This document shows, piece after piece, positions 4,502-33,547 of a stretch of 35,600 nt of DNA. Made by a program: the position numbers and the translations under genes. The first letter of the stretch is position 1, and every line of letters begins with the position of its first letter. The notes under the pieces are model-generated. The model saw only the letters and a program-made list of their open reading frames with translations. It did no database searches and was not told the origin of the DNA. This stretch comes from an uncultured Fastidiosipila sp. (lineage in GTDB: Bacteria > Bacillota > Clostridia > Saccharofermentanales > Fastidiosipilaceae), in the NCBI GenBank assembly GCA_964548975.1, contig CAZJTS010000001.1, positions 1 through 35,600 on the forward strand, written 5' to 3'.

Positions 4502-4549
4502 CTCAGACGACAGCCTATGATAGCAGTAGAATGATTCGCATGAGGTGAG

Positions 4550-7668: not shown

Positions 7669-7672
7669 ATTC

Positions 7673-8543: not shown

Positions 8544-9002
8544 ATGGAGCGCATACAAAAGTATCTGAATAGGGTTTATCGAGCGGCGGTTTTGGATCGC
8601 TCGGCTGCCTTTGCCAAGGAGGGACTTCCGGGCTGGCAGGTGAGTTATATCCTGCAGACGTGTCGGACGCCCGGTCTGACCCAGGATGAGCTTGCGACAA
8701 GGCTTTATGTGAACAAAAGCTCGGTGACGAGGCAGGTAGCTCAGATGATTGCGGAGGGTTTTCTCACTCGCGAAACGGATCCGGCGGATCGGCGCTGTAA
8801 GAGGCTTTTCCCGACGGCAAAGGCGGAGGCGCTCTACCCCAGGGTGATCGCCTATCTGGAGGACTGGAATGAGGCGTTGACCTCGGAGCTCGAGCCCGCA
8901 GATCAGGAGCGTTTGGTGGTTTTGCTCCGGCATTTGGCCAAAACCGCGACCGCCCGCGTAAACCAAAAGGATCTGGCGAGCCTGCTGGATGATATAGATT
9001 GA
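8544..9002 (+). CDS. MarR-family transcriptional regulator
   Basis: It has a winged-helix core, LTQDELATRLYVNKSSVTRQVAQMIAEGFLTRETDPADRRCKRLFPTAKAE. It sits immediately upstream of the ABC exporter pair, with only a 9-nt gap. Confidence 0.9.
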   Translation: MERIQKYLNRVYRAAVLDRSAAFAKEGLPGWQVSYILQTCRTPGLTQDELATRLYVNKSSVTRQVAQMIAEGFLTRETDPADRRCKRLFPTAKAEALYPRVIAYLEDWNEALTSELEPADQERLVVLLRHLAKTATARVNQKDLASLLDDID

Positions 9003-9011
9003 GGTAATAAG

Positions 9012-10775: not shown

Positions 10776-10777
10776 AT

Positions 10778-12556: not shown

Positions 12557-12667
12557 AAATTGTAAAGAGAGCGGCTCCCCCCTTGATTTAACCTCTCTTT
12601 AACATTACATTAACAAAGGAAATAATCATCCCTATCGCGCAACGCTTAAAAACCTTTTGGGGGAAGC

Positions 12668-16503: not shown

Positions 16504-16541
16504 AGTCTATCTCCTAGGGGTCTTACCCCTATTGTAACGGA

Positions 16542-18650: not shown

Positions 18651-18659
18651 ACTTCTACC

Positions 18660-19751
18660 TCACACCTGATCGCTGCGGAAGGCATCAAGGCCGAGGCGGA
18701 GGGCTTCGGCAGCTAACCCATCATCAGAGCGGCTAAGTCGGCGGTAGAAGAGCCCGCGCAGAGAATCCTCCGCCCGGAGCCCCTCGTGGTCGATGTGCGG
18801 GGCCGTTCGATCCAAAAGTCCGCTCAGTTGATAACCCTCGTCTTTCAGCCTCTGGCTGAGCAGTTCGGTGTCCGGAACGTAGCTGCCGCCGTTTTCGCCG
18901 GTCAGGGTCAGGTACCAGATCGGGTCGGTTGAAGGGATCTGATTCAGGATTTCGGCGATCGCCTGTTCGTGGTCCAGGGGGGCGTTGAGGCTGACCTCGA
19001 GGTTACGGTATTCCGTGCGGGCCAAAGCCACGAATCTCGCCTCCTGCCAACGAGCGTCCTGGAACTCCAGCACGAAGCAGCCGCGGCTCCCCTCATCCAG
19101 GCGGTTCAAGCCCTGAGGCGTGCCGGCGTACGCGTAACGGCAGGCGCCGGCCACGCGGATGTTTCGGTCGGGCTGGTGGATATGGCCGAGAGCCACATAA
19201 TTAAAGGGACTCCGGGCGAGATCTGCAGCACTTAAATCATTGTAGAGCCCGCTGCCGGCGGGGAGCTCAGCATGGATGAGGGCCAGTGCCAAGGGGCAAT
19301 TGTCGAGCTCGCCCCGGGCTTTGGCCGATTCATAAGACTCGATCAGGGCCGGGAGGAGCTCTGTTCGCTGATATAGATTGCGAAAACCCGCGCCGCTAAC
19401 GGACACGCCCAGTTGCTCCAGGGCAATAGTCTCGGGATCGACGAGGATATGAATGTGCTCCGGCCAGGCTTGGCGGTAGGGCGAGAGGAGATCGGCAGGA
19501 TCGTGGTTGCCGGGGGTCAGGAAGATGGGAATCGAGAGGTCAGCGAGCAGAGTTCTAACGCGCGAAAGCTCCTCAGCGCTGATCTGCCCCTGTTCTAGAA
19601 TGTCGCCGGCCAGAAGCAGGAGATCCGCTTGGGTCTCGCGGCACAGCTCCAACAGCGACCTGAATACGTCGAATCGTTCCTCGCGTCGCGCCCGGTCCCT
19701 GCCTGCACCGAGGTGAAGATCTGCTGCGTGTATGACCCTGAGTTTTCCCAT
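18660..19751 (-). CDS. YhaO/SbcD-like calcineurin-type metallophosphoesterase (DNA repair exonuclease family)
   Basis: Metallophosphoesterase motifs are present: IHAADLHLG, LLLAGDILE, TPGNHD and ALGHIH. SD GGGAGG lies upstream of ATG 19751. Confidence 0.8.
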   Translation of the reverse strand: MGKLRVIHAADLHLGAGRDRARREERFDVFRSLLELCRETQADLLLLAGDILEQGQISAEELSRVRTLLADLSIPIFLTPGNHDPADLLSPYRQAWPEHIHILVDPETIALEQLGVSVSGAGFRNLYQRTELLPALIESYESAKARGELDNCPLALALIHAELPAGSGLYNDLSAADLARSPFNYVALGHIHQPDRNIRVAGACRYAYAGTPQGLNRLDEGSRGCFVLEFQDARWQEARFVALARTEYRNLEVSLNAPLDHEQAIAEILNQIPSTDPIWYLTLTGENGGSYVPDTELLSQRLKDEGYQLSGLLDRTAPHIDHEGLRAEDSLRGLFYRRLSRSDDGLAAEALRLGLDAFRSDQV

Positions 19752-21590: not shown

Positions 21591-21619
21591 TTGACCGCAT
21601 TCTACCTCGGGCTTACAAT
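21591..21619 (+). promoter_or_regulatory. Sigma-A-type promoter driving the cobalamin riboswitch operon
   Basis: TTGACC (21591-21596) - 17 nt - TACAAT (21614-21619). The predicted start site at about 21626-21627 falls immediately before the riboswitch P1 strand. Confidence 0.65.
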
Positions 21620-21627
21620 AAGCCCAT

Positions 21628-21804
21628 GGATTCGGGTGCTGTCCTTTAGCGGCGATTCGCTAGCGGACAGATAATAGGGAATACAGTGAAATTCTGTAAC
21701 AGCCCCCGCTACTGTGATCATGAAGTACTCACATAGGCCACTGTTCTAACGAATGGGAAGGCGTGACGTACCAGGCATGAAGTCAGGAAACCTGCCCTCG
21801 ATCC
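21628..21804 (+). promoter_or_regulatory. Cobalamin (B12) riboswitch
   Basis: The conserved core is read directly: AATAGGGAATACAGTGAAATTCTGTAACAGCCCCCGCTACTGTGA (21672-21716). Also present are AGGCCACTGTTCTAACGAATGGGAAGG (21735-21761) and the B12 box AGTCAGGAAACCTGCC (21781-21796). P1 can form between GGATTCGGG (21628-21636) and CCCTCGATCC (21795-21804). A P2-like hairpin is CTGTCC..TAGCG..CGCTA..GGACAG. Block-by-block it resembles the E. coli btuB leader as I recall it. Confidence 0.92.
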
Positions 21805-21864
21805 ACGATCAGTTATCTTTCGGTGGGAAAGATGGGCTCGAAGTTTCTCGATAGCACTTCGTAT

Positions 21865-21897
21865 CCCTTCCCGCCACCCGCAGGAGGGGATTTTTTT
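21865..21897 (+). terminator. Riboswitch expression platform: intrinsic terminator that also sequesters the SD
   Basis: CCCTTCC (21865-21871) pairs with GGAGGGG (21883-21889), giving 7 bp including one G-U, followed by A plus T7 (21891-21897). The 3' arm is the SD AGGAGG of the first gene. The upstream GGTGGGAAAG (21822-21831) can pair with the CCCTTCCCGCCACC region as an antiterminator. Confidence 0.7.
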
Positions 21898-22807
21898 GTT
21901 AGAGATATTACGATTATTTTGGCCAAAGAAAAGGTCTCGCGCCAAGCTCGGGCTCGCCCTTGCCCTCGCGCTGACTGTTTCTGCCTGTAGCCCCAATCCG
22001 CCGGCTGAAACAGCTGCGCCGATAGCAGAGACCACACAAGCGACGGAAACTTCGCAGGTTGTTGAAACAACGGATCCGATCGTCTCTGAAACAACTTCGG
22101 AAACTGAGGAGAGCTCCGCACCGACAGAGCCTTCAACAACCGTGAGCGAAGAGACGACGACGACCGAGGCCACGACTACTACACAGACGACGTCGACGAC
22201 CACAACTTCAACAACGCCGGCGCAAACTACGACCCGTGCGACCACAACCCGGCCGACAACTCAGCCACCGACGACTGTAACTACGACTACTTCGACGAGC
22301 ACTACAACCACAACCACTGAACCCACGACAACTCAGGCACCCACAACCACTGAACCCACGACAACCGCAGCACCCACCACAACCCCCGCGCCCACCACTG
22401 TCGAGCCCACGCCGGTTCCGGAAGTGGTCTATTTCACCATCGATTACACCGAATTGCTGAATGCGAGTGATCGGGTGAAGGAGATGCTCCGGGAGAAGCG
22501 CGTCTGGGACCTCATCCCGTCCGTGGGTTTGGAGCCCAACGCCTCGCCGATCAATTGGCAGGACGGCGATACCGTGCTGAGCTTGTCGATCCGGGCTTTT
22601 GATGCCTACCGAATTCCCCGGGAGCTGCAGAATTTCGGTTTCGGGACGTACATCCGGAGCATCAAAATGATCGAAGAAAAGGTCGCCGGCCCTTCGTCCG
22701 GCTGGACCTACGAAATCAACGGGGTGCAAATCCCGCTCGCATCAGATAGCAAACCCCTCCAGCCGGGTGACAGTCTGGTTTGGAAATATGTCGTACCCGA
22801 AAATTAA
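21896..22807 (+). CDS. Lipoprotein with a long Thr-rich stalk and a C-terminal DUF4430 (transcobalamin-like) domain
   Basis: TTG start, 8 nt after SD AGGAGG. The signal peptide carries the lipobox LTVSAC (Cys31, nt 21986-21988). A stalk of about 145 aa dominated by Thr/Pro/Glu/Ala follows. The C-terminal domain carries FGTYIRSI...GPSSGWTYEINGVQIPLASDSKPLQPGDSLVWKY, the characteristic DUF4430 pattern. Confidence 0.8.
   Translation: MLEILRLFWPKKRSRAKLGLALALALTVSACSPNPPAETAAPIAETTQATETSQVVETTDPIVSETTSETEESSAPTEPSTTVSEETTTTEATTTTQTTSTTTTSTTPAQTTTRATTTRPTTQPPTTVTTTTSTSTTTTTTEPTTTQAPTTTEPTTTAAPTTTPAPTTVEPTPVPEVVYFTIDYTELLNASDRVKEMLREKRVWDLIPSVGLEPNASPINWQDGDTVLSLSIRAFDAYRIPRELQNFGFGTYIRSIKMIEEKVAGPSSGWTYEINGVQIPLASDSKPLQPGDSLVWKYVVPEN
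22314..22379 (+). repeat. Imperfect 33-nt tandem duplication inside the Thr-rich stalk coding region
   Basis: Unit 1 (22314-22346) is CCACTGAACCCACGACAACTCAGGCACCCACAA. Unit 2 (22347-22379) is CCACTGAACCCACGACAACCGCAGCACCCACCA. By my count 28 of 33 nt are identical. The units encode TEPTTTQAPTT and TEPTTTAAPTT. Confidence 0.8.
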
Positions 22808-22828
22808 CAGGCGAAAGTAGGTAGTATT

Positions 22829-25141
22829 ATGCGAAGCAAACTTGGTGTCCGGCTCAGTAGCTGGCTGTTGGTGACTCTCTTTTGGCTCTTGCCGATAGCG
22901 CAGAGCCAGGCGACAGAAGTGCCGCAAACGGCTGCAGAAACGGTGACGATCCGGATTCTGAACGAAGTTGTTGAAGAAAGTGAAGGTGCTGCCTGGTCAG
23001 GCGCATTCCTCGAGGCGACGGAAGTCCCTTGGGCGGAAGATCTGACGGCCAAAGCCGCCATAGAGCAGCTCGCTCAACAGGAAGAATTTACCGTAGACTT
23101 CCAGGACACGGCTTCCGGCTCTATGCTTACGGGCGTGGCCGGTCTCGATTCCACTCTGGTCCCCGAAGGCGCCACCTACTCCGGCTGGGGTTATTCCGTA
23201 AATGACCTGACTCCTTTCGAAGCGCTGGATCAGAAAGTGCTGGCGGCCGGCGATCAGCTGACCTTCTACTTTCAGACCGGTTGGCCCTCAATACAGGTTT
23301 CAATCGCGAACACCACTTATCCTGATGGTGCCTGGACCGGCGAACTGGCCAAAGGCGACTTCTACTACAGCCTCCCTGAGCATAAGGACGTCACGGCGCG
23401 CGAAGTGCTGGACACTTTCGCAAGCTACAACCAGGTCACTTTGAACTATGAATCCTCGTCCTGGGGCGATTATCTGACCACAGTGAACGGGCTCTCGACC
23501 ACGGAAGAGATTCCGGGCGCCGAGTGGGCAAGCTGGATGGCCAAAGTCAACGGCGCGGACAGCACTGAAGGTCTGGACACCCAGATCTTGAATCCGGGTG
23601 ACAGCCTCGAGCTCTATTTCCATGTGAATTGGTTGCCTGAGCCGACGGAGCCGACCGAAGCACCGACCGATCCTACCGAAACCAGCCCGGACGACTTCGC
23701 TGAAGCGGAACTCAAGGAACTTTCTGCTTTTTGGCCCGAATTCCGGGGTTCTTCTGATCATATGGCGATCCGGGAAGCCGGCGCCCCTCGCACAGCTGAG
23801 GAGACAGAGGTTCTCTGGTCCAAAACCTTCGGTGATCCGGCGAGCTGGTCGGGATTCTCGGGTCAACCCATTATCGTCAATAGCGAGCTCTGGCTCATTC
23901 ACGGCACGACGCTGGAAGCGCTGAATCCTGAAACCGGTGAAAGCCTGCGGACCAAATCCCTGCCCGTGGGCCAGGGCTATGCCAGCACGGCACCGCTCTA
24001 CGCGGAAGGTAGGCTCTTCCTGCCTTTGGACGGCGGCACGGTGCTCGCGCTGAACGCTGAGACCTGGGAGACTTTGTGGCAGTATCAGGATCCGAATCGG
24101 GGTCAGGCGCAGTCGCCTTTGGCCTATCGGGATGGCATCCTCTACGCTTCCTTCATGAACAGCGGCTCTGAAGGTGCTCTGGTGGCGCTCAATGTCGCCG
24201 ACGGCAGCGCGAGTTGGCGTCAGACCCAGCCCGGCGGTTTCTACTGGGCGGGTATGCAGGTGACAGCCGATTACCTCTTGAGCGGCAGCGAGTCGGGCGA
24301 CATTCTGGTGTATGATCGCCTGACCGGGACTTTGTCCGACAGTCTGGCCACCGGCGCCCCCGTAAGAAGTAGCATTATTACAAACGGGTCAAACTACTAT
24401 GTTGTCAATAGCCAGGGCGAGCTCGTGCGCTGGCAACTGTCCGCTGCGGGCAAGATCGAGCAGGTCAACAGACTCTCTCTCGGTAGCCCGGTCACGGCAA
24501 CGCCGGTAATTCTGGACGGCAAGCTCTATGTCGGTTCCACCCAGGTGTATTATGTGATCGATGCGACAACTTTGGCCAAAATCCGGGAAATCACCCTCCC
24601 CGGCTATGCCCAGGGCTCCCCGCTCGTCGTCACCGGAAATGGAGTGACCTTCTATACCACCGTAAACAGCTTGCCCGGTGCACTTTATGCGTTCGGGCCT
24701 GAGAGCGTTGAAGCCGAGACCCTCTTCCTGCCCGAAGCGGAGGGCTTCGCGGTCTCGTCGCCGATCCTGAGCCAGAGTGGTGCGATCATTTACCGAAATG
24801 ACTCAGGGACAGTCTTTGCGCTGCGTCGGTCAGTTACTGCGCCGAGTGAGACAACAGAGACTACGACGACACAAGCGCCGACGGAAACGACAACAGTTGC
24901 AACGACAACAACCACCGTTGCAACAACACTTGCAACAACTACCAACCAAACTCAAGCAACAAACACCCCAACCGCAGAGCCCACGACCACACCTGAGTCT
25001 GTCCCTGCAACCGGTGAGGGCAATGTTGGTTGGTTGATTGGCATCAGTTTACTGGTCGTTGCAGCCATACTCGTGGTGGTTATGCTGATCGTCCGCCGCA
25101 AGGATCTGGACCGCACGGAGGATCCGCGGGAGGATGAATGA
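22829..25141 (+). CDS. Cell-wall-anchored surface protein: signal peptide, 2x DUF4430, PQQ-like beta-propeller, Thr-rich stalk and LPXTG-type (VPATG) sorting signal
   Basis: The signal peptide is MRSKLGVRLSSWLLVTLFWLLPIAQSQA. Two DUF4430-like modules end in SGWGYSVNDLTPFEALDQKVLAAGDQLTFYF and WASWMAKVNGADSTEGLDTQILNPGDSLELYF. A PT linker follows. Repeated propeller blades of the form G.L.ALN..TGE..W include TLEALNPETGESL, TVLALNAETWETLW, ALVALNVADGSASW and ILVYDRLTGTL. The Thr-rich stalk is TETTTTQAPTETTTVATTTTTVATTLATTT. VPATGE (25001-25018) is followed by a hydrophobic helix and the RRKD tail. Confidence 0.8.
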   Translation: MRSKLGVRLSSWLLVTLFWLLPIAQSQATEVPQTAAETVTIRILNEVVEESEGAAWSGAFLEATEVPWAEDLTAKAAIEQLAQQEEFTVDFQDTASGSMLTGVAGLDSTLVPEGATYSGWGYSVNDLTPFEALDQKVLAAGDQLTFYFQTGWPSIQVSIANTTYPDGAWTGELAKGDFYYSLPEHKDVTAREVLDTFASYNQVTLNYESSSWGDYLTTVNGLSTTEEIPGAEWASWMAKVNGADSTEGLDTQILNPGDSLELYFHVNWLPEPTEPTEAPTDPTETSPDDFAEAELKELSAFWPEFRGSSDHMAIREAGAPRTAEETEVLWSKTFGDPASWSGFSGQPIIVNSELWLIHGTTLEALNPETGESLRTKSLPVGQGYASTAPLYAEGRLFLPLDGGTVLALNAETWETLWQYQDPNRGQAQSPLAYRDGILYASFMNSGSEGALVALNVADGSASWRQTQPGGFYWAGMQVTADYLLSGSESGDILVYDRLTGTLSDSLATGAPVRSSIITNGSNYYVVNSQGELVRWQLSAAGKIEQVNRLSLGSPVTATPVILDGKLYVGSTQVYYVIDATTLAKIREITLPGYAQGSPLVVTGNGVTFYTTVNSLPGALYAFGPESVEAETLFLPEAEGFAVSSPILSQSGAIIYRNDSGTVFALRRSVTAPSETTETTTTQAPTETTTVATTTTTVATTLATTTNQTQATNTPTAEPTTTPESVPATGEGNVGWLIGISLLVVAAILVVVMLIVRRKDLDRTEDPREDE

Positions 25142-26025
25142 CGGATAGTTTTGCCAGACTGCACCCGGCCGGACAATTCGTCTATTATGCGATTGTCTTG
25201 GGTCTAAGTATGGTGTTGAGGCACCCGGCGACGGTTCTCATAGCGTGGCTGGGTGTCTGTTTGGCGCTATTGCCGCATATCGATGAGGGCAAGCGCTGGC
25301 GTACTTTTTTGTTACCATTCTTCTTTGCTATTCCGACAACCATTCTCAATGCGCTCTTTCGCCATTACGGCGTTCACGTTCTCTGGACCTTCCCGTCCGG
25401 CAACTGGCTGACGCTGGAGTCGATTCTGGACGGTGCCCAGGCCGGCCTCCGCCTCGGGGTCGTGATGCTCTGGTTCATTCATATGTATAAGTCGCTGGAA
25501 ACCGACCGGATTCTCTACCTCTTCTCACCGTTTCCGGTGTTTTCGTTGCTGCTGACCCTGACTCTGGGCTATCTGCCCCGCTTCTCTCGCGAAGCCGAGC
25601 AACTGGCCGCGGTCCAGAAAGTAGCGGACGGCGAAACGACGGCCCCACTCAAAGTGCGTTTCCGTCGACAGGCGGCGCTTTTGGCCTCGCTCAGCGGCTG
25701 GGCGTTGGAGAGCTCGATCGTCACAGCGGATGCCATGCAGGCCAGAGGTCTGGGGATCAGCGGCCGCAAAACCCGCTATCAGCTATACCGCTGGAGTGGC
25801 CGAGATAGCCGTTTCATGGGGATCGCGCTCGTGCTGACCGCTACAACGATCTGGCTCACGAGCCGGGGGCACCTTGATGCGGCCTTTCACCCCTTTCTCT
25901 ACCTGCCGCGCTGGAACAGCGGCGATCTTTTGGTGTTTATTCTGAGCAGTCTGCTCTTCTGTTTCGCATTTCTGATCAATCTGGGAGGGACCTTACGCTG
26001 GCATTACTCGCAACAGAACATCTGA
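25138..26025 (+). CDS. ecfT: ECF transporter transmembrane (T) component, EcfT/CbiQ family
   Basis: Polytopic membrane protein with cytoplasmic coupling-helix motifs (LPRFSREAEQL, ADAMQARGLG, the latter an Ala-Arg-Gly motif). Its ATG overlaps the upstream stop (ATGA at 25138-25141). It is followed by the ECF ATPase. Confidence 0.8.
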   Translation: MTDSFARLHPAGQFVYYAIVLGLSMVLRHPATVLIAWLGVCLALLPHIDEGKRWRTFLLPFFFAIPTTILNALFRHYGVHVLWTFPSGNWLTLESILDGAQAGLRLGVVMLWFIHMYKSLETDRILYLFSPFPVFSLLLTLTLGYLPRFSREAEQLAAVQKVADGETTAPLKVRFRRQAALLASLSGWALESSIVTADAMQARGLGISGRKTRYQLYRWSGRDSRFMGIALVLTATTIWLTSRGHLDAAFHPFLYLPRWNSGDLLVFILSSLLFCFAFLINLGGTLRWHYSQQNI

Positions 26026-27644
26026 CATTCGCTTACCCCGAGCAGCCCCCGCTCTGGCAAGACCTGACCTTCGAACTCCCTCGAGGCAGTTTCACCCTGC
26101 TCGCCGGCAGTGGCGGCAGCGGGAAGTCGACCCTGCTGAGGCACTTGATCCACAAGCTTGAACCCCACGGGCGCAAATCAGGCAAGATTCTTTTCGAAGG
26201 CACAAACTTAGCAGAAGTCCCTGCTGCAGACAGAGTACGCACGATCGCGTTCGTCATGCAAAATCCCGACGACCAGATAGTCTCGGACAGCGTTTGGCAT
26301 GAACTGGCTTTTGGCCTCGAGCAGCAGGGCATTGCTCCGGCAGAGATGCGCCTTCGGATCGCTGAAATGGCGAACTTCTTCGGCATGCAGACCTGGTTCA
26401 CCAGGAAATGCCGCGAGCTCTCCGGTGGCCAGAAGCAACTGCTGAATCTGGCTTCGGTACTTGTTTTGAAACCCGAGCTCCTGATCCTTGACGAGCCCTG
26501 CGCCCAGCTCGACCCGATAGCAGCGGACGAATTCGTCCACATGCTGCAACGTGTCAATCGCGAGCTCGGCGTCACCATTGTCCTGACCGACCACCGCCAG
26601 CAGCTCATCCTGCCCCTCGCAGACCGGGTGCTGCTCTTGGCGAACGGCAGCTTGCGAACTTTCCCTTCCGCGAAGGCTTACGCGAGCTTCTTGTTGGAGA
26701 CAAACTCGGCTTTGGCCAAAGCCCTGCCCGCCGCGGCCCGCATCAGCTATGTCGTGAATCCCGCCAGGCTGACCCTGGAACTCCGCACCGTTCGAGAATT
26801 GCTCAGAGAAGCATTTGCTAAAGCGCCTTGGGAAACCGAGGACCTCACTGAAACGACGCATGAGCCGGCAATCCTGGGCCATCTAAAAGAACTAAGCTTC
26901 GCCTACGGCAAGAACGCGCCCCTGGTGTTGGACCGCCTGTCACTGGCTATTCCTCGTCAGCGGATCTTGGCGATCCTGGGCGGGAACGGCAGCGGCAAGT
27001 CCACACTGATGCACACCATCGCCGGCCTGAACCGGGTACAGAGCGGCAAAATCCGCTGGACGAATGGCCGCCCGCGTATAGCGCTATTGCCGCAGAACGC
27101 CCGACTGCTGTTCACCGAGGAGACCGTGCTCGCCCAACTTGAGGCGGTCAGAGCGGCGCAGTCCTCGGAGGAACGCGCCAGAGTTCAGGACCTCCTCGCG
27201 ATCGACTCTGCCGAAGAATTACTGGACCGCCTCGGTCTTAAGGAACGTATGAATTACCACCCCGCCGACCTATCCGGCGGCGAGTTGCAGCGGGCTGCAC
27301 TGGCGGTGACGCTTTTACAAGGGGCGGAACTCCTGCTGCTGGACGAGCCGAGCAAAGGCCTGGATGCCGAAGCGGCCGCCCAATTGGCCGAGATCTTACA
27401 TCAGCTCTGCGAGCGCGGCATCACGATCGTCTTCGTGTCTCACGACCTGGATTTCTGTGCGGAACATGCCGACAGCTGTGCGCTGCTTTTCCAGGGAGAT
27501 ATCGTTGCGCTGGCTGTGCCTCGGCAGTTTTTCAGCGGCCATTATTTCTATACCACGGATGCTTCGAGAATCGCCCAGGGCTTCCTCGACGGCCAAATCA
27601 CGGTAGAGGAGGTCTGTGCCGCATGGCAGAACCGACACAGCTGA
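25998..27644 (+). CDS. Fused tandem ECF ATPase (EcfA-EcfA', YkoD-like duplicated NBD); the start codon is non-canonical and uncertain
   Basis: There are two NBDs. NBD1 has Walker A GSGGSGKST (26110-26136), signature LSGGQKQ and Walker B LLILDEP. NBD2 has GGNGSGKST, LSGGELQ and LLLLDEP. The track start (TTG 26145) lies downstream of the first Walker A. Between the in-frame stop at 25875-25877 and 26145 there is no ATG, GTG or TTG. The candidates are CTG 25998 (SD GGGAGG at 25983-25988) and CTG 26022 (CTGA overlap with the ecfT stop). Confidence 0.75.
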   Translation: MALLATEHLTFAYPEQPPLWQDLTFELPRGSFTLLAGSGGSGKSTLLRHLIHKLEPHGRKSGKILFEGTNLAEVPAADRVRTIAFVMQNPDDQIVSDSVWHELAFGLEQQGIAPAEMRLRIAEMANFFGMQTWFTRKCRELSGGQKQLLNLASVLVLKPELLILDEPCAQLDPIAADEFVHMLQRVNRELGVTIVLTDHRQQLILPLADRVLLLANGSLRTFPSAKAYASFLLETNSALAKALPAAARISYVVNPARLTLELRTVRELLREAFAKAPWETEDLTETTHEPAILGHLKELSFAYGKNAPLVLDRLSLAIPRQRILAILGGNGSGKSTLMHTIAGLNRVQSGKIRWTNGRPRIALLPQNARLLFTEETVLAQLEAVRAAQSSEERARVQDLLAIDSAEELLDRLGLKERMNYHPADLSGGELQRAALAVTLLQGAELLLLDEPSKGLDAEAAAQLAEILHQLCERGITIVFVSHDLDFCAEHADSCALLFQGDIVALAVPRQFFSGHYFYTTDASRIAQGFLDGQITVEEVCAAWQNRHS

Positions 27645-28363
27645 ATCGCTACGGCGTCCCGGTCCTCATCGGTCTGATTGTGACAACGTTGGTCTTGTGG
27701 TGGCGCTTCTTCCCGGAGCAGTACTTCCTGGCGATCACGCTCCTGCTGGGGGAATGTCTGCTTTTGTGGATCGTTTACCTGGAGAAAATCCGCCCGCAGG
27801 CGCGGGAGATCGCCCTGATGGCGGCATTGGCGACCCTGGGAATTGCAGGGCGGGCCCTGTTCTTCTTCGTTCCCCAGGTTAAGCCGACCGCAGCCATTGT
27901 CCTGATCAGCGGGCTGGTGCTCGGGCACGTGCCGGGCTTCACGGTCGGCTTGCTGACGATGTTCCTGTCGAACTTTCTCTTTGGCCAATCGATCAACACG
28001 CCCTTCCAGATGCTCGGCATGGGGCTGGTCGGCCTGATCGCCGGGCTCCTGGCCGGAAGGCGGACGCTTTCCGCTCTACAAACCGCAATTCTCGGCTTTA
28101 TCCTGACGTTTTTCGTCTACGGCCTGGCGGTCGATACCGGCAGTGTCCTCTTCCTCGCGCGCTGGCAGGGTGCGGTCGGGGTGTGGCCGGTCTATCTGGC
28201 GGGCATACCTTTCAATCTGGTGCATGCCGGAGCCACCGCGGTCTTCGCCCTTTTCCTCTACCCGTTCCTGACCCGGCAACTCAAACGCATCTGCCGGAAG
28301 TACGGGCTTTTCAGTCAGCGCAGTAGGAATACTGACCCAGAGCCCTCAGTACTGGAGCAATGA
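27623..28363 (+). CDS. ECF transporter S (substrate-capture) component-like membrane protein; corrinoid specificity is inferred from context only
   Basis: 246-aa all-helical membrane protein with S-component-like segments (REIALMAALATLGIAGRALFFFVPQVKPTAAIVLISGLVLGHVPGFTVGLLTMFLSNFLFG). It overlaps the 3' end of the ATPase gene by 22 nt. SD GAGGAGG at 27606-27612. Confidence 0.6.
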   Translation: MAEPTQLNRYGVPVLIGLIVTTLVLWWRFFPEQYFLAITLLLGECLLLWIVYLEKIRPQAREIALMAALATLGIAGRALFFFVPQVKPTAAIVLISGLVLGHVPGFTVGLLTMFLSNFLFGQSINTPFQMLGMGLVGLIAGLLAGRRTLSALQTAILGFILTFFVYGLAVDTGSVLFLARWQGAVGVWPVYLAGIPFNLVHAGATAVFALFLYPFLTRQLKRICRKYGLFSQRSRNTDPEPSVLEQ

Positions 28364-28428: not shown

Positions 28429-29376
28429 ATGGATCCACAACAGATTAAAACCGCAATTGACAAGATCCGCCGCAATGTCCAGAGTGTCGTGATCGGCCAG
28501 AATAAGGCTATCGAGCTTCTTATCGTCGCTCTGGTGAGCCGCGGACATGTACTGCTGGAGGACGTTCCCGGTATCGGTAAGACCACGTTGGCCTCGGCTT
28601 TGGCCAGATCATTGAATCTCGACTTCGGCCGTATCCAGTTCACCCCGGACGTTATGCCCTCCGACATTACCGGATTCAATATGTATAACCCCAAGGTGGG
28701 GGAATTCACCTTCCACCCCGGCGCGATCATGGCAAATCTCGTGCTGGCCGATGAGATCAACCGTTCCTCACCGAAAACCCAGTCCTCACTGCTCGAAGCG
28801 ATGCAGGACCGCCAGGTCACGGTGGACGGTGTCTCTTACAAACTCCCTGAACCCTTCATGGTCGTTGCGACCCAGAATGCGGTCGAGCAGATCGGCACCT
28901 ATCCCCTGCCCGAGGCGCAGCTGGACCGTTTCATGATCAAGTCGAATCTGCGCTATCCCTCCGCCGCTGAGGAGGTCGAGATTTACCAGATGCATGCCGG
29001 GCACTCGCCTTTGGCCGACATGGATGCCGTGATCTCCGCCAGCGAAGTCGTCAAGCTCCAGGAAGAAGCGATCGGCATCTATGTAGCGCCCGCCCTCTAC
29101 GATTACGTGGCGAAACTGGCCCAGGAAACCCGCCGTCACAAGCAGGTTCAGCTCGGCGTCAGTCCGCGTGGTGCCTTGATGCTTGTCCAGGCGGCCAAAG
29201 GCCGGGCCCTCATCGAAGGCCGCGACTACGTGTTGCCCGATGACATTCACTACCTGGCGCCTTACTGTATGGCCCACCGAATGATCCTCCATAGCGACAG
29301 CGAACTGGCCGGGGCATCAACCCTGCAGGTCATCGACCAGATTATCAAGAGCACGCCCGTACCGCGTCAGTCCTGA
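28429..29376 (+). CDS. MoxR-family AAA+ ATPase
   Basis: Walker A EDVPGIGKTTLA, Walker B LVLADEINRSSPKTQSSLLEAMQDRQVTVDG, and VVATQN sensor region. The size (315 aa) and layout are typical of MoxR (AAA_3) proteins. Confidence 0.9.
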   Translation: MDPQQIKTAIDKIRRNVQSVVIGQNKAIELLIVALVSRGHVLLEDVPGIGKTTLASALARSLNLDFGRIQFTPDVMPSDITGFNMYNPKVGEFTFHPGAIMANLVLADEINRSSPKTQSSLLEAMQDRQVTVDGVSYKLPEPFMVVATQNAVEQIGTYPLPEAQLDRFMIKSNLRYPSAAEEVEIYQMHAGHSPLADMDAVISASEVVKLQEEAIGIYVAPALYDYVAKLAQETRRHKQVQLGVSPRGALMLVQAAKGRALIEGRDYVLPDDIHYLAPYCMAHRMILHSDSELAGASTLQVIDQIIKSTPVPRQS

Positions 29377-29393
29377 GTAGATAAGGTACCGGC

Positions 29394-30905
29394 ATGAGTG
29401 GACGTTTCCTCCTCTATCTGATCCTGGTAGGGATCACTTACGCTATTTACAGTTTCACAGCTTATTCCCCTATGCTCTTTTTGCTGATTCTGTTGCTGGC
29501 GTTGCCTGTCTGCTCATTTATTCTTCTCTTTATCAGCCGCTTTTTCGTGCGTGTTGAGTTGACTTCGGCCAAAACCCAGGTCTACCGTCTGGAGCCCTTC
29601 GCACTGGCCCTCCGCATTCAGAATCGCGGCCCCTTTTTCTTTCCTTTGGTCAGAATCGAATTCAATCTCCCCCGCCGGGACGACCATCTGTTGCCTGAGA
29701 AAGACTGGCATGCCGGTATCGAAACCGCATCTGAGGATGTCCATTTCTTCAATGAATATCTGGGCTGGGAGGGTGAAGCACAGGCGGAACCGGATCTGGA
29801 GAAGAACCCGGAGAGTCGGGCCAGATCCGTGGATCGCCGAAAAACCTGGCGCCTCTACCCCACCCCCCACATGACTTATATACGCAAAATTCTGACCGCA
29901 GTAGTGCCGCAACGAAGTACCAGTTTCCAGGAAATCGTCATGTCTGCGCGTAATAAGGGCATTTATGCTGTCGGCACAGACTCGATCCTGCTCCAGGACC
30001 TCTTCGGTTTCTTCTATCTGCCTTTACCGAGAGCTTCACGCGTCGACAAGGCCAGCGGCATAGTCAATACGCTGGTCGAGATCGAGGTCCTGCCCAATCC
30101 TTTCCGTTGGCAATCGCCGGGTGCCGGTAAGCTCCGGGCTCCTGAAGAAGTGCTGATGAATACCCAGAATCTGAAAGTCTCTAATGAAGTGGATTCACTG
30201 GCCAATGTCCGTGACTTCGTCCCGGGCGACCGCATCAAGCAGATCCACTGGAAACTTTCCGCCCGCGGCGGCAAATGGCTCTCCCGTGAGTTCGAAGACC
30301 CCCGCCAGGGCGGTATTCTTTTCGTCATTGACCCGAAACTGCCTGATGATTGTATAAAACCCTTAAACTACAGCAATGAAGTGCCTGAGATCATGGCCTC
30401 GACGATGCGGGCTTTGTCCCGTACCGAAGGGCCGTTGAATCTCTTGATGGGCGACGACTACTTCACAGCGCCCGGCGAAGGACTTGAGCCCATTAGCTTC
30501 TACAGGGCGATGATGCTGTGGAAACCCCAGATCCGTCACGACGATTTCCGCCTCCGTTCTGCAGAAACAAAGCTGGCCTGTCAGGTGATGCAAAACCGCA
30601 TGGTCCTCTCCGATATGCTCCGCAAAGAAACCAAGAATAAACGCTACCGGGCGATCGTCATTATCACGGCCCGGATGAGCGAGCCCCTATCCAGCGAGAT
30701 CCGCCGCGTCCAGAAGCTCGGTAGCCAGGTCTTGCTGATCTTCCTACATAATGAAACCAAAGCGTATTTAGATGAGATGCTGAGGCCCTTAGCCGTAGCG
30801 AAAATCCGTCTCTTCCCCACGCGCCTTCAGTCCCTCATTCCTTATGCTGAGGTAGAAAAACATCCGGATCTTGCCGTCAGACCCGGCAGCAGGAGGAGCG
30901 GCTGA
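29394..30905 (+). CDS. DUF58-domain protein with two N-terminal TM helices
   Basis: The family-defining block VRDFVPGDRIKQIHWKLSARGGKWLSREFE is present. It sits in the canonical position right after MoxR. Confidence 0.85.
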   Translation: MSGRFLLYLILVGITYAIYSFTAYSPMLFLLILLLALPVCSFILLFISRFFVRVELTSAKTQVYRLEPFALALRIQNRGPFFFPLVRIEFNLPRRDDHLLPEKDWHAGIETASEDVHFFNEYLGWEGEAQAEPDLEKNPESRARSVDRRKTWRLYPTPHMTYIRKILTAVVPQRSTSFQEIVMSARNKGIYAVGTDSILLQDLFGFFYLPLPRASRVDKASGIVNTLVEIEVLPNPFRWQSPGAGKLRAPEEVLMNTQNLKVSNEVDSLANVRDFVPGDRIKQIHWKLSARGGKWLSREFEDPRQGGILFVIDPKLPDDCIKPLNYSNEVPEIMASTMRALSRTEGPLNLLMGDDYFTAPGEGLEPISFYRAMMLWKPQIRHDDFRLRSAETKLACQVMQNRMVLSDMLRKETKNKRYRAIVIITARMSEPLSSEIRRVQKLGSQVLLIFLHNETKAYLDEMLRPLAVAKIRLFPTRLQSLIPYAEVEKHPDLAVRPGSRRSG

Positions 30906-33547
30906 TGAGAGAAAGAACCTTCATGCCCAGAATCCGTAATCAAGTGCTTTTATTCGTAATGAGCTATATCTTTGCCTTCAGCTTAGCCATGCTCGCTACG
31001 GAAGTCTTCCGCCTGCCTGTCACAGCCGGTCAGAATCTGCTGGGCACCTTTGTCACGCTCTTCATCCTGACCGTTCTCTTCTTCAATCCGACCACGACCA
31101 TAGTGACATTTATCGTCGCAGGTCTGGGGGGACTGCTCTTACTCCTCACCCCGCTTCGCGAAAACGAGTGGGTCACCGAGCGGCTTGAGCCTTTAGGCGA
31201 ACGCCTGACTTTGGCCCTGGCACAGGGACAACGTTTCTTAGAGGAAGGTTTCTCCTACTTCAATTCCTTCTCAACTTCACTCACAGAAAGAGAGCAGGAC
31301 GCCTTTAAACTCCTTGCCTCTCTGATCCTCCTCATTACCACCATCCTGACTTTCCTCATGATCCAGAAACTCAGGACCTATTGGATCCCCCTCTTCCTGG
31401 TCATACTTCTGATTCCCTTAGCTATTTACTCGGGCAGCAATTTCGCGCTCGTCTGGCTGATCCCGCTGGCCCTCGTCAGCATCGCGATGATTCTCCTGAG
31501 CTCCGGTCACCTACTGGATCTTTTGCGCAAAAAGAACGGCATCAAGCACCTGCTGGCCGCAGGCGGTCAAATGGGCGTTGCAGTCATCCTGGCACTGGTC
31601 GTTGCATTCCTTGCAACGGGTTTCCTGAACTATCAGAAGATCTATTCTCCCTATTGGCAGGGTGTGGTCGATGACCTCGTTACGCTTCTACCCGAGTCAT
31701 TTCAGGCCCCGCTCTCCATCAGTCCCTTCTCCATCGGTGACGATGGCTATTATCCGCTTACCAACCGTTTAGGCGGTCCCGTTGTCCTCGAAGACAACGA
31801 GGTTGCAAGTGTCGTTGGTAACGTACCGGGTCTATTGAAAGTCCAGAGCTCAGACTTTTACGATGGTCAACGTTGGCAACGGCTTGTCAACAACCCCAAT
31901 TTCCGTTACTCATCGCCTTTCAACGGCGGTGCCGAAACCCTGGTTTTCAATCCGCTTGAACCGCCCGAGTTCTTCGATCTGCTGGATGGCGCTTCGGCTG
32001 AAGATGTCTACAATAACTATGACTATACCCTGACCCCCTTACGTCAGGGATCGCAGTTACTCTTCTTGAACGGCACCCCGACGAATCTGGTCTCTTCGCG
32101 AGAAGAAGCCATGCTCTTCTACTTCAATCAGGCAGGTGCCGTGTACGCACGAACAGTCTTCGATAACCAGCACGCTTACAGTGTCGAAAGCTATGATATC
32201 AATCCCAACCGTCTCGGCTTCGCCGCTACACCGGGCAGCGTATCTTTGTCAGAGCTGGACCGCGCAGCTGCGGAATTCCAAGCTGCCGGACTGACACTGC
32301 CGAACCACGACAATGCCTACGATAACTACCTGCAGGTTCCCGGCACCTCCGCCTATCAGCCCGGTGGGGTGGTATATGAAACCGCTCTTGAGCTGACCGA
32401 TGGTCTCCCGGGAAATTACGCAAAAGCAAAGTCGCTCCTCAGTTACTTCACCGAGAATCCCGAATTCTCTTACACACTGGAACCGACTGTACCGCCGGCC
32501 GATACGGATTTCGTCGCTTATTTCTTGAACACGAAGATCGGCTACTGTACCTATTACGCCACCGGCCTCACCATGCTGGCCCGCTTGAGCGGCATCCCGG
32601 CGCGTTACGTCGAAGGCTACGCCCTTACCTCAGAGAACTACGAAGAGTTGAGTCTGGGCGAAGAATCGATGCTCAACTCCGAAAATGCGCACGCCTGGAC
32701 CGAAGTCTATCTCGACGGCTTAGGTTGGGTCCCCCTCGATCCGACCCCGGGCGGCGTCCTCGGTGAAGGTTTTGAAGAACCCGAACCTACCCCGCCGGTC
32801 GAGCCTACAACTACCCCGACTACTACGGAAGAACCGACTACCACAACCGAAGAACCGACAACATCAACCAGTGAGGACGAGTTCGAGCCGACCACTTCAC
32901 CGACCACAATCGAACCGACCACCGCGGCTAAAGAGGATCGTCCTCCCAGTGAAATACTACGTATCCTGGGTAGAATTCTACTGGTCCTACTTCTGCTTGC
33001 CCTGCTGGTCTTCCTCGCCTGGTTCTACTATAAGAAGCGCGTCGAGCACTTCCAGAATATCCATAACCGCACCTGGCTTGAGGCCAAAATCCCGGACGGC
33101 AAGAAGCTTGCTAATTTCTACTGGAAAGAGCTGCTCAGTATCCAGAGACTCTCCTCCGAATACCTGCCGGGCACCAGCCTGACCGAGCACGAAATTGCCG
33201 ACACTTTGGACGCTGCCCAGCAAGAGAGTCCCGTAGAGCCTGAGGTTGTTGAACCGGCCCCTGAGACCGACCCGACTGAAGATCCGGAAGCGATCTATCG
33301 TCCGGAGCATCAGCCGCCGGTGAAGCCGGAATCCGCAGCCCCGGAAAGCAGCACTGATCTCGGCTTCTGGACACCTTTGGCCGGTATCGTGGCTGAAGCT
33401 CGTTATCGCGGTCAGGACATGCCGATCGAGCGACTGGCGCCTTTGGCCGACGCTTTCGACCGGGCGGAGACAGACCTCAGAAAAGAGCTCGGTGAAGCAG
33501 GCTACATCAGGAAGCGACTGCTCCCACCGACACAAGGTAAAATCTAG
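30905..33547 (+). CDS. Transglutaminase-like membrane protein (TgpA-like architecture)
   Basis: The ATG overlaps the DUF58 stop (TGATG at 30903-30907). A multi-TM N-terminus is followed by an extracytoplasmic domain. That domain carries a transglutaminase-core Cys/His/Asp triad context (GYCTYYATG, NAHAWTEVY, WVPLDPTP). A PT-rich linker, one further TM helix and an acidic cytoplasmic tail complete the protein. Confidence 0.85.
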   Translation: MRERTFMPRIRNQVLLFVMSYIFAFSLAMLATEVFRLPVTAGQNLLGTFVTLFILTVLFFNPTTTIVTFIVAGLGGLLLLLTPLRENEWVTERLEPLGERLTLALAQGQRFLEEGFSYFNSFSTSLTEREQDAFKLLASLILLITTILTFLMIQKLRTYWIPLFLVILLIPLAIYSGSNFALVWLIPLALVSIAMILLSSGHLLDLLRKKNGIKHLLAAGGQMGVAVILALVVAFLATGFLNYQKIYSPYWQGVVDDLVTLLPESFQAPLSISPFSIGDDGYYPLTNRLGGPVVLEDNEVASVVGNVPGLLKVQSSDFYDGQRWQRLVNNPNFRYSSPFNGGAETLVFNPLEPPEFFDLLDGASAEDVYNNYDYTLTPLRQGSQLLFLNGTPTNLVSSREEAMLFYFNQAGAVYARTVFDNQHAYSVESYDINPNRLGFAATPGSVSLSELDRAAAEFQAAGLTLPNHDNAYDNYLQVPGTSAYQPGGVVYETALELTDGLPGNYAKAKSLLSYFTENPEFSYTLEPTVPPADTDFVAYFLNTKIGYCTYYATGLTMLARLSGIPARYVEGYALTSENYEELSLGEESMLNSENAHAWTEVYLDGLGWVPLDPTPGGVLGEGFEEPEPTPPVEPTTTPTTTEEPTTTTEEPTTSTSEDEFEPTTSPTTIEPTTAAKEDRPPSEILRILGRILLVLLLLALLVFLAWFYYKKRVEHFQNIHNRTWLEAKIPDGKKLANFYWKELLSIQRLSSEYLPGTSLTEHEIADTLDAAQQESPVEPEVVEPAPETDPTEDPEAIYRPEHQPPVKPESAAPESSTDLGFWTPLAGIVAEARYRGQDMPIERLAPLADAFDRAETDLRKELGEAGYIRKRLLPPTQGKI

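Follow-up and report, generated by a model that had tools for sequence, protein, structure and literature searches.

The five genes that follow a cobalamin riboswitch in the DNA of this Gram-positive Clostridia bacterium very probably form an operon for the scavenging and import of corrinoids (vitamin B12, cobamides or cobinamide). Within the window, by which we mean the whole 35,600-nt stretch that was analysed, these genes join two surface-tethered proteins carrying transcobalamin-like DUF4430 domains to an ECF importer. An earlier note on this DNA had proposed that the surface proteins capture corrinoids and hand them to the importer; because the parts were confirmed almost item by item, this capture-and-hand-off reading is well supported by inference. 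The sequence-level description given in that note (riboswitch, hairpin, gene order, junctions and domains) was correct except for the start of the ATPase gene. Of its functional interpretation, the parts and the fold stood; the idea proved not to be novel, and the likeness to BtuG and the direction of the relay were overstated.

A riboswitch-controlled operon of five genes

The following features were located:

21591..21619, + strand: sigma-70-type promoter, TTGACC-17-TACAAT, 10/12 matches in a consensus scan
21617..21814, + strand: cobalamin riboswitch aptamer (RF00174), cmscan 104.3 bits, E 2.7e-25, full model 1-189
21814..21898, + strand: expression platform, a small hairpin (AUCUUUC..GAAAGAU) followed by an intrinsic terminator in the MFE fold
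21896..22807, + strand: lipoprotein, 303 aa, TTG start
22829..25141, + strand: secreted wall-anchored protein, 770 aa
25138..26025, + strand: EcfT (CbiQ-like) transmembrane coupling subunit, 295 aa
25998..27644, + strand: fused EcfA-EcfA' ATPase, 548 aa, inferred CTG start
27623..28363, + strand: CbrT-family ECF S component, 246 aa (family assigned by sequence similarity)

The cmscan search established that the proposed riboswitch is real, and orthologous riboswitches are present at loci L001, L003, L004, L005, L006 and L007, while a search of the orthologous locus L002 found none. The proposed promoter also holds up: four promoter-like matches occurred in 7.4 kb against 2.3 expected, a single match being without significance alone, and the same -35 and -10 hexamers keep their place ahead of the riboswitch in L001, L005 and L003, with differing spacers. 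In the MFE fold the terminator consists of AUCCCUUCC, an 11-nt loop and GGAGGGGAU, followed by U7 (about 21864-21897), and its 3' arm holds the SD for the lipoprotein gene, the first of the operon, which starts with TTG at 21896. L001, L005 and L006 keep the same design, in which the start codon comes after a terminator 3' arm with GGAGG and a U-run, bearing out the claim of a terminator that also sequesters the SD. On our own reading, GGUGGGAA may pair with UUCCCGCC as a candidate antiterminator. High intracellular corrinoid would permit the terminator, which would also bury the lipoprotein gene's ribosome-binding site; at low corrinoid, all five genes would be expressed.

These genes are tightly coupled on the + strand. 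The lipoprotein gene and the gene for the 770-aa protein are separated by 21 nt, the latter and the EcfT gene share an ATGA overlap at 25138, and the EcfA-A' and S-component genes overlap by 22 nt. The closest relatives are MAGs of Fastidiosipila and Oscillospiraceae, and orthologous loci keep the operon at protein identities of 37-49%.

An ECF importer with a CbrT-like S component

Sequence similarity places the S component within the CbrT B12 family. Searched singly against the PDB, it matched only 6FNP_A (CbrT, E 8e-8), and a profile of its orthologs found 6FNP_A at E 1.9e-21 with RibU next at 3.5e-4, a match ~17 orders of magnitude better than that to any other solved S component. The protein also matches Pfam ECF-ribofla_trS (E 1.7e-9) and carries a hydrophobic N-terminal extension of roughly 55 aa. 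The former description, an S-component-like protein, is thereby sharpened to a family named after CbrT, the S component specific for B12 in PDB 6FNP. CbrT binds cobalamin and cobinamide, both of which are transported by ECF-CbrT in an ATP-dependent manner (PMC5997447).

That the ECF module is a dedicated one was confirmed by the NCBIfam matches of EcfA-A' (ECF_ATPase_1, 2e-82, and ECF_ATPase_2, 1.6e-77, in two stretches each) and by a profile of EcfT orthologs, which matched the solved EcfT 5D3M_D at E 2.6e-13. EcfA-A' also contains two Pfam ABC_tran domains. As a single sequence, EcfT scored below threshold against Pfam CbiQ (E 0.31); its L001 ortholog matches CbiQ, and the ARG coupling-helix motif is found within MQARGLG. 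The EcfA-A' reading frame upstream of Walker A holds no ATG, GTG or TTG. We take CTG 25998, which is preceded by the SD GGGAGGG at 25983-25989, as the likely start because it is the only one that agrees with the TTG start of the L001 ortholog. The previously described overlap of the T and A genes exists; with this start it is 28 nt long and the product has 548 aa.

Two tethered proteins with transcobalamin-like domains

The lipoprotein begins with a signal peptide and the lipobox LTVSA-C31 (TVSAC), which is kept in four orthologs (L001, L002, L005 and L006), continues with a 144-aa stalk containing 45% Thr and ends in a DUF4430, or transcobalamin-beta-like, domain (aa 176-303; Pfam DUF4430 at aa 224-298, E 4.8e-10). 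In the 770-aa protein, a signal peptide (1-28) precedes two DUF4430 domains (about 37-150 and about 151-268), a P/E/T linker, a predicted 8-bladed, BamB-like propeller (about 296-667), a 55-aa stalk with 51% Thr (668-722) and a sorting signal of VPATGE, TM and RRK (724-770). The Pfam search recovered both DUF4430 domains of this protein (E 5.5e-14) together with PQQ_2, the BamB-type propeller match (E 1.1e-13), and Beta-prop_ACSF4, so that all three DUF4430 domains previously proposed are real. The sorting motif is kept in orthologs as [VLI]PxTGE, and both tethering signals are therefore present here and conserved, as had been claimed; no sortase gene lies within the window. Wall-display anchors vary by lineage between a sortase signal, SLH repeats and dockerin, which suggests that surface location is a conserved requirement.

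The transcobalamin-like fold named in the earlier note was confirmed by structure comparison. With an AF2 model of the lipoprotein domain (pLDDT 96.6), Foldseek ranks 1-19 were occupied by the beta domains of transcobalamin (TC), intrinsic factor (IF) and haptocorrin and by the bacterial DUF4430 structure 3U7Z, and all folds ranking after these had E above 0.19. The match to TC-beta in 5NO0 reached E 6.7e-5 and TM 0.75, and that to 4KKI an rmsd of 2.0; over about 124 columns, rmsd to the mammalian domains ranged from 2.0 to 3.2 A. Searched against the PDB, a profile of 17 DUF4430 domains likewise matches TC2 beta, haptocorrin and IF, the sequence similarity to TC beta being marginal (E 0.005). 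The mammalian domains share the Pfam family DUF4430 with those of the operon but are only 12-14% identical to them. The operon also differs in encoding no alpha/alpha-toroid alpha domain and in having its domains in tandem or singly, fused to a propeller or a lipid anchor. Isolated TC beta domain binds both cobalamin (Cbl) and cobinamide (Cbi): it co-purifies with cobalamin and has been crystallised in complex with either CNCbl or Cbi (PMC5599065). The DUF4430 domains of the operon would bind corrinoid by the same face, for which residue conservation is no guide because most TC-ligand contacts run through the backbone.

In the AF2 model of the 770-aa protein (domain pLDDT 75-93), the propeller is predicted to be of the 8-bladed BamB/YxaL type, with Foldseek matches to BamB 3q7m (E 2e-17) and to 8-blade designs (TM 0.85-0.86). 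Its nearest sequence matches in the PDB are enzymes and BamB, and BtuG appeared neither among these matches nor among the top 50 Foldseek structural matches. The likeness is thus to scaffolding propellers (BamB, YxaL) and not to BtuG, and as its most likely role we propose a scaffold, a surface for docking or a second ligand 'jaw'.

Once expressed, both binders would be displayed outside the membrane. The sortase-type signal would attach the 770-aa protein covalently to peptidoglycan, with the Thr-rich stalk holding it outward, and the lipoprotein would present its one DUF4430 domain on a ~144-residue Thr-rich tether. Captured corrinoid would reach the membrane-embedded, high-affinity CbrT homolog, and ATP hydrolysis by the EcfT/EcfA-A' module would drive it into the cell. 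Of the two-tier relay put forward earlier, the two tethered binders are present; a hand-off between them, and its direction, we infer. The lipoprotein gene is absent from the orthologous loci L003 and L007, and so this tier is dispensable in some relatives; in L006 the gene lies outside the riboswitch-controlled unit, and together these loci indicate that the two-tier layout is not obligatory.

Relation to known systems and earlier predictions

The idea itself is not new. Burroughs, Balaji, Iyer & Aravind (2007) described bacterial transcobalamin-like SLBB surface proteins, noting signal peptides and anchors of the Gram-positive kind, a fusion to a beta-propeller in Clostridium and operons with a second paralogous SLBB protein and CbiO/CbiQ genes, and proposed that they scavenge B12 or B12 precursors (PMC1796856). 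Their account applies directly to this operon, whose architecture it had already set out and whose role in B12 scavenging it had predicted. It differs in being purely computational and in reading propeller-like accessory domains as wall-tethering modules, and the available text contains neither the word riboswitch nor a link to the later-defined CbrT. The layout has thus been a computational prediction since 2007; we found no B12 biochemistry on such a system, and no corrinoid binding or transport experiment on a bacterial DUF4430 protein, in the searchable literature.

Among experimentally studied importers, ECF-CbrT of Lactobacillus delbrueckii (characterised in 2018; PDB 6FNP; Santos et al. 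2018, PMC5997447) has a homologous S component (profile E 1.9e-21), a homologous EcfT (E 2.6e-13) and ECF-type EcfA/A' ATPases, with cobalamin/cobinamide as the presumed substrate here. It is a group II system with a shared ECF module and separate EcfA and EcfA', and its cbrT sits in an nrdJ-cbrS-cbrT-pduO cluster. In contrast, the present operon has a dedicated, group I-like module with A and A' fused, B12 riboswitch control, an extended S component and two co-transcribed extracytoplasmic DUF4430 proteins. The Bacteroides BtuB-BtuG(-BtuH/BtuJ/BtuK) relay, to which the operon had been likened, shares a generic logic: B12-riboswitch loci, surface-tethered corrinoid binders placed before a membrane transporter, one beta-propeller component and tethering by lipid or wall. 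Its parts are unrelated, however. The propeller here is of a different, 8-bladed BamB-like type, the binders are beta-grasp SLBB domains and not DUF4465 or BtuH domains, and a single-membrane ECF system takes the place of the TonB-dependent outer-membrane transporter.

Recurrence of the layout and alternative explanations

The operon layout is common in gut Firmicutes. We surveyed the neighbourhoods of 35 propeller clusters (70% identity), mostly from human gut metagenomes, and found a B12 riboswitch in the locus of 22, of which 18 were confirmed with Rfam. A DUF4430 domain occurred in the same protein in 12/35 and in a neighbouring gene in 24/35, an EcfT-like gene in 14/35 and a CbrT-like S gene in 9/35. 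The combination of propeller, DUF4430, ECF and B12 riboswitch thus recurs across lineages in many independent loci, and in at least 9 clusters, as in this window, the binders share one riboswitch-controlled unit with T-AA'-S, to which they are either adjacent or translationally coupled.

That last arrangement bears on an unlikely alternative, in which ECF-CbrT imports corrinoids while the surface proteins form no relay: they would be a reservoir or a layer that sequesters corrinoids, to keep them from competitors or to buffer the supply, or would strip B12 from host or microbial carriers docked by the propeller. Propeller/DUF4430 wall proteins of 1000-3400 aa often have no ECF genes within 10 kb, CbrT is high-affinity by itself, ECF transporters normally do without a soluble binding protein, and BtuJ-type binders of Bacteroides have been described as reservoirs outside the cell (abstract of 10.1101/2025.07.01.662609). 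Against this stand the joint control of binders and importer and a membrane-tethered DUF4430 lipoprotein beside the transporter genes, the latter suiting delivery more than storage; the two can coexist. It is quite improbable that the propeller protein has nothing to do with corrinoids, being for instance an adhesin or enzyme kept in the operon through synteny or fusion history. Its fold is generic, its nearest solved relatives in sequence include enzymes, and Burroughs et al. suggested that such accessory domains tether the proteins to polysaccharide of the wall (PMC1796856); yet the subfamily is tightly linked to DUF4430 (87/161 collected proteins, 76 of them among the best 150 propeller relatives), and the clusters with B12 riboswitches include L008, L020 and L051, in which the riboswitch lies directly 5' of a propeller protein with no detectable DUF4430. 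A role in tethering only is hard to reconcile with the SLH, dockerin or sortase anchors that these proteins already carry.

Import of another tetrapyrrole, above all heme, by surface capture and ECF uptake is very unlikely. It has a precedent in L. sakei lsa1836-1840, the only related operon with genetics, a five-gene ECF and transcobalamin-like operon assigned to heme uptake. Its logic is the same: an S component, a fused A-A' and T are joined by two secreted proteins resembling transcobalamin (one TC-beta-like, one TC-alpha-like, or toroid). After deletion, 57Fe-heme accumulation at 5-40 uM hemin fell 5- to 8-fold, and overexpression raised it. However, that operon has no propeller, Thr stalks or sortase signal, and a riboswitch goes unmentioned; the effect was seen at micromolar heme only, in a study whose scope did not include cobalamin. 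Corrinoid import is favoured here by the high-scoring cobalamin riboswitch, as in the majority of related clusters, by the specific match of the S component to CbrT, and by the failure of hemin to compete with B12 for uptake by ECF-CbrT (PMC5997447).

Operon structure and regulation

The operon lies on the forward strand and comprises a promoter, a cobalamin riboswitch and five genes.

Features of the operon and the matches on which each is based
21591-21619, +, promoter TTGACC-17-TACAAT, immediately 5' of the riboswitch (consensus match 10/12)
21617-21814, +, cobalamin riboswitch, RF00174 (104.3 bits, E 2.7e-25, model positions 1-189 of 189)
21896-22807, +, gene 1, lipoprotein with one DUF4430 domain (Pfam E 4.8e-10, 40.2 bits)
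22829-25141, +, gene 2, predicted secreted, wall-anchored protein of 770 aa (Pfam, AF2, Foldseek)
25138-26025, +, gene 3, EcfT (ortholog profile against 5D3M_D, E 2.6e-13)
25998-27644, +, gene 4, fused EcfA-A' (ECF_ATPase_1 2e-82 / ECF_ATPase_2 1.6e-77, two stretches each)
27623-28363, +, gene 5, CbrT-family S component (ortholog profile against 6FNP_A, E 1.9e-21)

The cobalamin riboswitch that an earlier note had read by eye was recovered by the covariance model across the full aptamer, against an Rfam gathering threshold of 31.5 bits. A consensus scan of the region gave 4 promoter matches where 2.3 were expected, and a single match means little; the promoter was accepted because identical -35 and -10 hexamers occupy the same place before the riboswitch, with diverged spacers, in the orthologous loci L001, L005 and L003. 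The RNA between the aptamer and gene 1 folds as a terminator hairpin, AUCCCUUCC-loop-GGAGGGGAU followed by U7. Its 3' arm is the Shine-Dalgarno sequence (SD) of gene 1 and the TTG start codon (21896) falls within the U-run, a layout conserved in three orthologous loci (L001, L005 and L006). Judged by this layout, the expression platform would couple the aptamer to the downstream gene, with a predicted response to ligand.

The gene junctions described previously were reproduced, namely the 21-nt gap, the ATGA overlap at 25138 and the 22-nt overlap of the A and S genes, as were the EcfA-A' fusion and the overlap of the T and A genes (28 nt); the start of the EcfA-A' gene had to be corrected. Its frame contains no ATG, GTG or TTG before the Walker A motif, and a frameshift or pseudogene was suspected as the ORF listing starts after that motif. 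We rejected this explanation because the reading frame is open, a strong SD (GGGAGGG, 25983-25989) ends 8 nt before CTG 25998, and the L001 ortholog starts with TTG at the position aligned to this CTG. The gene therefore appears to start at CTG 25998, which gives a 548-aa product and the 28-nt overlap with EcfT.

The 770-aa protein has few close homologs (37-49% identity), found in MAGs that bear the labels Fastidiosipila, Oscillospiraceae and 'Clostridiaceae'. The order kept in the orthologous loci is amylase, riboswitch, lipoprotein, propeller protein, T, AA', S, MoxR, DUF58 and transglutaminase. An orthologous riboswitch is present in L001, L003, L004, L005, L006 and L007; none was found in L002 (6800-8500), even at E <= 1. 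L003 and L007 are without the lipoprotein gene, and there the riboswitch abuts the SD of the propeller gene, which suggests translational control. In L006 (3290-3998) the DUF4430 lipoprotein gene is upstream of the riboswitch and hence outside its control. Downstream of the S gene, on the same strand and beyond a 65-nt gap in which no terminator could be recognised, lie genes for a MoxR AAA ATPase, a DUF58 protein and a transglutaminase-like protein (window 28429-33547). The same genes follow S in the orthologous loci that reach past it (L001, L003, L006, L007 and, with a longer gap, L005); the arrangement is probably conserved synteny, and co-transcription is possible.

The lipoprotein and the DUF4430 fold

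The N-terminus of gene 1, MLEILRLFWPKKRSRAKLGLALALALTVSA-C31, has a basic n-region, a hydrophobic h-region and a lipobox, in agreement with the pattern applied here ([LVI][ASTVI][GAS]C plus a positive n-region and a hydrophobic h-region). A lipobox is found in four of four gene 1 orthologs (TGC, SGC, TGC and VAC). Cys31 is followed by a 144-residue stalk (45% Thr) and the C-terminal DUF4430 domain. In the public protein collection, gene 1 occurs only as a 127-aa protein (P0012) that starts inside the gene past the Thr-rich stalk; automatic gene calling therefore missed the lipoprotein signal and the stalk.

DUF4430 (PF14478) is found at the C-terminus of vertebrate transcobalamins (PMC4350170). 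The assignment of this domain to both surface proteins was upheld by Pfam, whose gathering threshold of 23.8 bits is exceeded by gene 1 and by gene 2 (E 5.5e-14, 52.8 bits, two stretches). A profile of 17 DUF4430 domains from the operon and its orthologs matched the beta domain of TC2 (E 0.005) and haptocorrin (E 0.03) among PDB sequences, and also intrinsic factor and the bacterial DUF4430 structure 3U7Z. When the AF2 model of the lipoprotein domain (pLDDT 96.6) was compared by Foldseek, ranks 1-19 consisted solely of beta domains of transcobalamin (TC), intrinsic factor and haptocorrin together with 3U7Z (5NO0, E 6.7e-5, TM 0.75; 4KKI, rmsd 2.0 A), and the next folds were MoaD/ThiS at E >0.19. 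The transcobalamin-like fold given in the earlier note is thus borne out by the model.

Most contacts of TC with its ligand run through the backbone. The human TC beta domain alone needs extensive washing to strip bound cobalamin and, in isolation, was crystallised with CNCbl and with cobinamide; the alpha domain was purified ligand-free (PMC5599065). Because the isolated TC beta domain holds cobalamin, a stand-alone beta-type domain is a credible corrinoid binder, and by analogy we infer the same for the bacterial domains. Our literature search found experimental corrinoid binding for animal proteins and the isolated TC beta domain, and none for a bacterial DUF4430 protein. Other contexts of DUF4430 are a fusion with a FecR domain (L032, a related metagenomic locus, 12445-14001, 519 aa) and, in the 202-aa collection protein P0015, a position behind an N-terminal membrane segment.

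The ECF importer

The assignment of genes 3-5 to an ECF transporter held for the ATPases and the S component, and for EcfT it required a family profile. As a single sequence EcfT remained below the Pfam CbiQ threshold (E 0.31, end-to-end alignment); the profile built from eight orthologs matched a solved EcfT, and the ARG motif can be read directly from the sequence. The single S component sequence had as its sole match in the PDB the CbrT of the Lactobacillus delbrueckii B12 transporter (6FNP_A, E 8e-8), and the profile of its orthologs placed RibU (3.5e-4), 4HZU_S (1e-3) and 5D0Y (4.9) behind 6FNP_A. These matches indicate an EcfT subunit, two EcfA-type ATPase domains and an S component that belongs with CbrT and not with other S-component families. 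A CbiMNQO cobalt transporter was considered and rejected, there being no CbiM or CbiN and the S component being of CbrT type.

CbrT binds cobalamin (Cbl) and cobinamide (Cbi), and ECF-CbrT of L. delbrueckii, the sole member of the subfamily for which this is known, imports both in an ATP-driven manner (PMC5997447). Unlike L. delbrueckii CbrT (182 aa), the S component of the window has a conserved N-terminal extension of ~55 aa. The extension (aa 1-55, 27623-27790) is hydrophobic, carries a conserved FFPxQYFL motif and is common to the CbrT-like S components of the family; that the lipoprotein docks there is no more than a guess.

The wall protein and its propeller

Gene 2 begins with a signal peptide and two DUF4430 domains; a P/E/T linker connects these to a PQQ_2/BamB-type propeller (E 1.1e-13), which is followed by a 55-residue stalk (51% Thr) and a sorting signal. 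The C-terminus combines VPATGE, 23 hydrophobic residues (TM helix) and a basic RRK tail, consistent with a sortase-anchored (LPXTG-type) wall protein. VPATGE departs from the canonical L at position 1, and the match to the NCBIfam LPXTG family is weak (E 0.0067); in the orthologs the motif is conserved as [VLI]PxTGE (LPKTGE, VPETGE, ITQTGE and VP-TGE). No sortase was seen among the scanned ORFs of the window.

The AlphaFold model of gene 2 has a pLDDT of 75-93 in the domains and <50 in the stalks. Its propeller is most like the 8-bladed BamB, YxaL and 8-blade designs (Foldseek E ~1e-17, target TM <=0.86), and the best 50 matches also include tetrathionate hydrolase; as modelled, it resembles scaffolding propellers. 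The comparison with the Bacteroides propeller BtuG that the earlier note had proposed did not yield homology, with no BtuG among the PDB sequence matches (E <= 1) or the best 50 Foldseek matches. A PQQ-dependent dehydrogenase was likewise rejected (PF01011, 23.9 bits below a cut-off of 26.7; TIGR03075, 26.7 bits, far below a cut-off of 480), and what gene 2 has in common with these enzymes is the repeat/propeller scaffold only.

Relatives of the propeller in gut metagenomes

Word-indexed protein searches recovered few proteins: 9 with the full 770-aa protein as query, 5 with its stalk-free part and 4 with the DUF4430 profile. Part of the reason is that the candidate list fills up with Thr-rich low-complexity sequence. 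The family became visible through an exhaustive protein search and a metagenome scan. The former gave 420 representative proteins at E < 1e-30, most of which have the propeller alone in common (~35% identity, proteins of 600-3400 aa). A DUF4430-like domain was detected in 87 of the 161 proteins collected, with 76 of those 87 among the 150 best propeller relatives. Scanning metagenomes with the propeller alignment gave at least 482 relatives, mostly from the human gut, of which 80 loci were annotated with local HMMs that were checked against Pfam on L010, L032 and L056. Clustering the propellers at 70% identity left 35 clusters, window included.

Gene and riboswitch content of the 35 propeller clusters (lower bounds, because many contigs are short)
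B12 riboswitch in locus, 22/35 (18 confirmed with Rfam)
DUF4430 in same protein, 12/35
DUF4430 in neighbouring gene, 24/35
EcfT-like gene in locus, 14/35
Fused EcfAA' in locus, 10/35
CbrT-like S gene in locus, 9/35

The pairing of propeller, DUF4430 and ECF genes under B12 riboswitches thus recurs well beyond the window. The riboswitch of L027, an nhmmer match without Rfam confirmation at the gathering threshold, was counted as unconfirmed only. In L010 and L032 the domains are split differently, in the order riboswitch, propeller protein, DUF4430 protein, T, AA' and S. The propeller protein of the window has a sortase signal, those of L010 and L056 have SLH repeats and that of L008 has a dockerin; as these anchors occur in different loci, wall display appears to be the conserved property. 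The tight linkage of the propeller to B12 riboswitches extends to proteins without a detectable DUF4430 domain (L008, L020 and L051), which argues that the propeller is more than a spacer.

The human-gut relatives with SLH repeats (L010 9929-12382, L056 6140-14539) are as long as 2800-3400 aa. Loci of the L056 group also encode a DUF4430 protein of 736 aa, transcribed divergently under a riboswitch on the opposite strand. Two divergent cobalamin riboswitches occur in L008 (1804-7342, Candidatus Apopatocola equi MAG). The first is followed by two small unknown ORFs, then by a propeller protein of 1214 aa with a C-terminal dockerin, and the second by a cohesin + Flg_new protein; the arrangement looks like a B12-regulated cohesin-dockerin surface display pair.

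Proposed mechanism and alternatives

Gut communities are shaped by competition for B12 and other cobamides. To our knowledge, the extracellular machinery for capturing them has been worked out for Bacteroides only. ECF transporters are the textbook importers without soluble binding proteins. A 2026 review calls the extracellular cobamide binders of Gram-positive Firmicutes entirely uncharacterised (PMC13616437).

The set of parts, their regulatory layout and their repeated genetic linkage were observed directly, and the reading of the locus as a real, complete corrinoid capture and import operon is well supported, with the DUF4430 domains as putative binders. Under corrinoid limitation the operon would be read through, the wall-anchored protein and the lipoprotein would bind corrinoids via their DUF4430 domains, and the ligand would reach CbrT and be imported. 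Transfer in two tiers is plausible from the geometry (wall anchor and stalk; lipid anchor and 144-aa tether), and would not be obligatory because some relatives are without the lipoprotein tier.

Heme as the substrate in place of corrinoids would be in line with the phenotypes of L. sakei Lsa1836-1840 deletion and overexpression at uM hemin, but it is at odds with the cobalamin riboswitch of the operon and the CbrT specificity of its S component, and we regard it as highly improbable; hemin does not compete in ECF-CbrT uptake (PMC5997447). It is also unlikely that the surface proteins form a reservoir or act in sequestration or piracy instead of passing corrinoids on to the importer. A propeller function unrelated to corrinoids is unlikely because of the co-occurrence statistics. 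Whether corrinoid capture involves the propeller as an active part, and not just as a spacer or wall tether, is a separate matter on which we lean tentatively against. If it does, the propeller could be a second 'jaw' over the DUF4430-held ligand, in place of the alpha/alpha-toroid domain of transcobalamin, or possibly a docking platform that strips corrinoid from foreign carriers or passes it to the lipoprotein and CbrT. Propeller + DUF4430 proteins would then amount to a Gram-positive equivalent of the Bacteroides BtuG/H/J relay, widespread and made of unrelated parts, feeding a transporter class normally thought to have no extracytoplasmic binding protein.

The capture idea itself is not new. 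In its passages on bacterial transcobalamin-like SLBB proteins, Burroughs et al. 2007 (PMC1796856) already describes their signal peptides and Gram-positive anchors, a fusion to a beta-propeller, paralogs encoded in the same operon and adjoining CbiO/CbiQ, and proposes that they scavenge B12 or B12 precursors and that animal transcobalamins are of bacterial origin. Because of that prediction, and because CbrT was predicted in 2009 (Rodionov et al., as cited in PMC5997447) and proven in 2018, the core inference of the earlier note is a rediscovery, sharpened by the riboswitch and the CbrT assignment. The window is a compact, complete example and adds no new principle; the most useful lead is the propeller family as a marker of surface proteins under B12-riboswitch control across gut Firmicutes. 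An ECF-CbrT with dedicated surface binders would qualify the binding-protein-free picture of ECF transporters. As human-gut metagenomes commonly contain propeller, DUF4430 and ECF genes combined under B12 riboswitches, one biochemical study would annotate many 'hypothetical' giant surface proteins, and would also test the descent of animal transcobalamins from these bacterial proteins.

Remainder of the window

The remaining window (1704-19751) looks ordinary. It contains a tRNA (7676-7747, -), a P-type cation ATPase, a YitT-family protein, a sulfatase-family membrane protein, two ABC exporter genes, a Na/Pi cotransporter with PhoU, a weak M3 peptidase-like ORF, an SbcCD-like AAA_23/Metallophos pair and a GH13 alpha-amylase.
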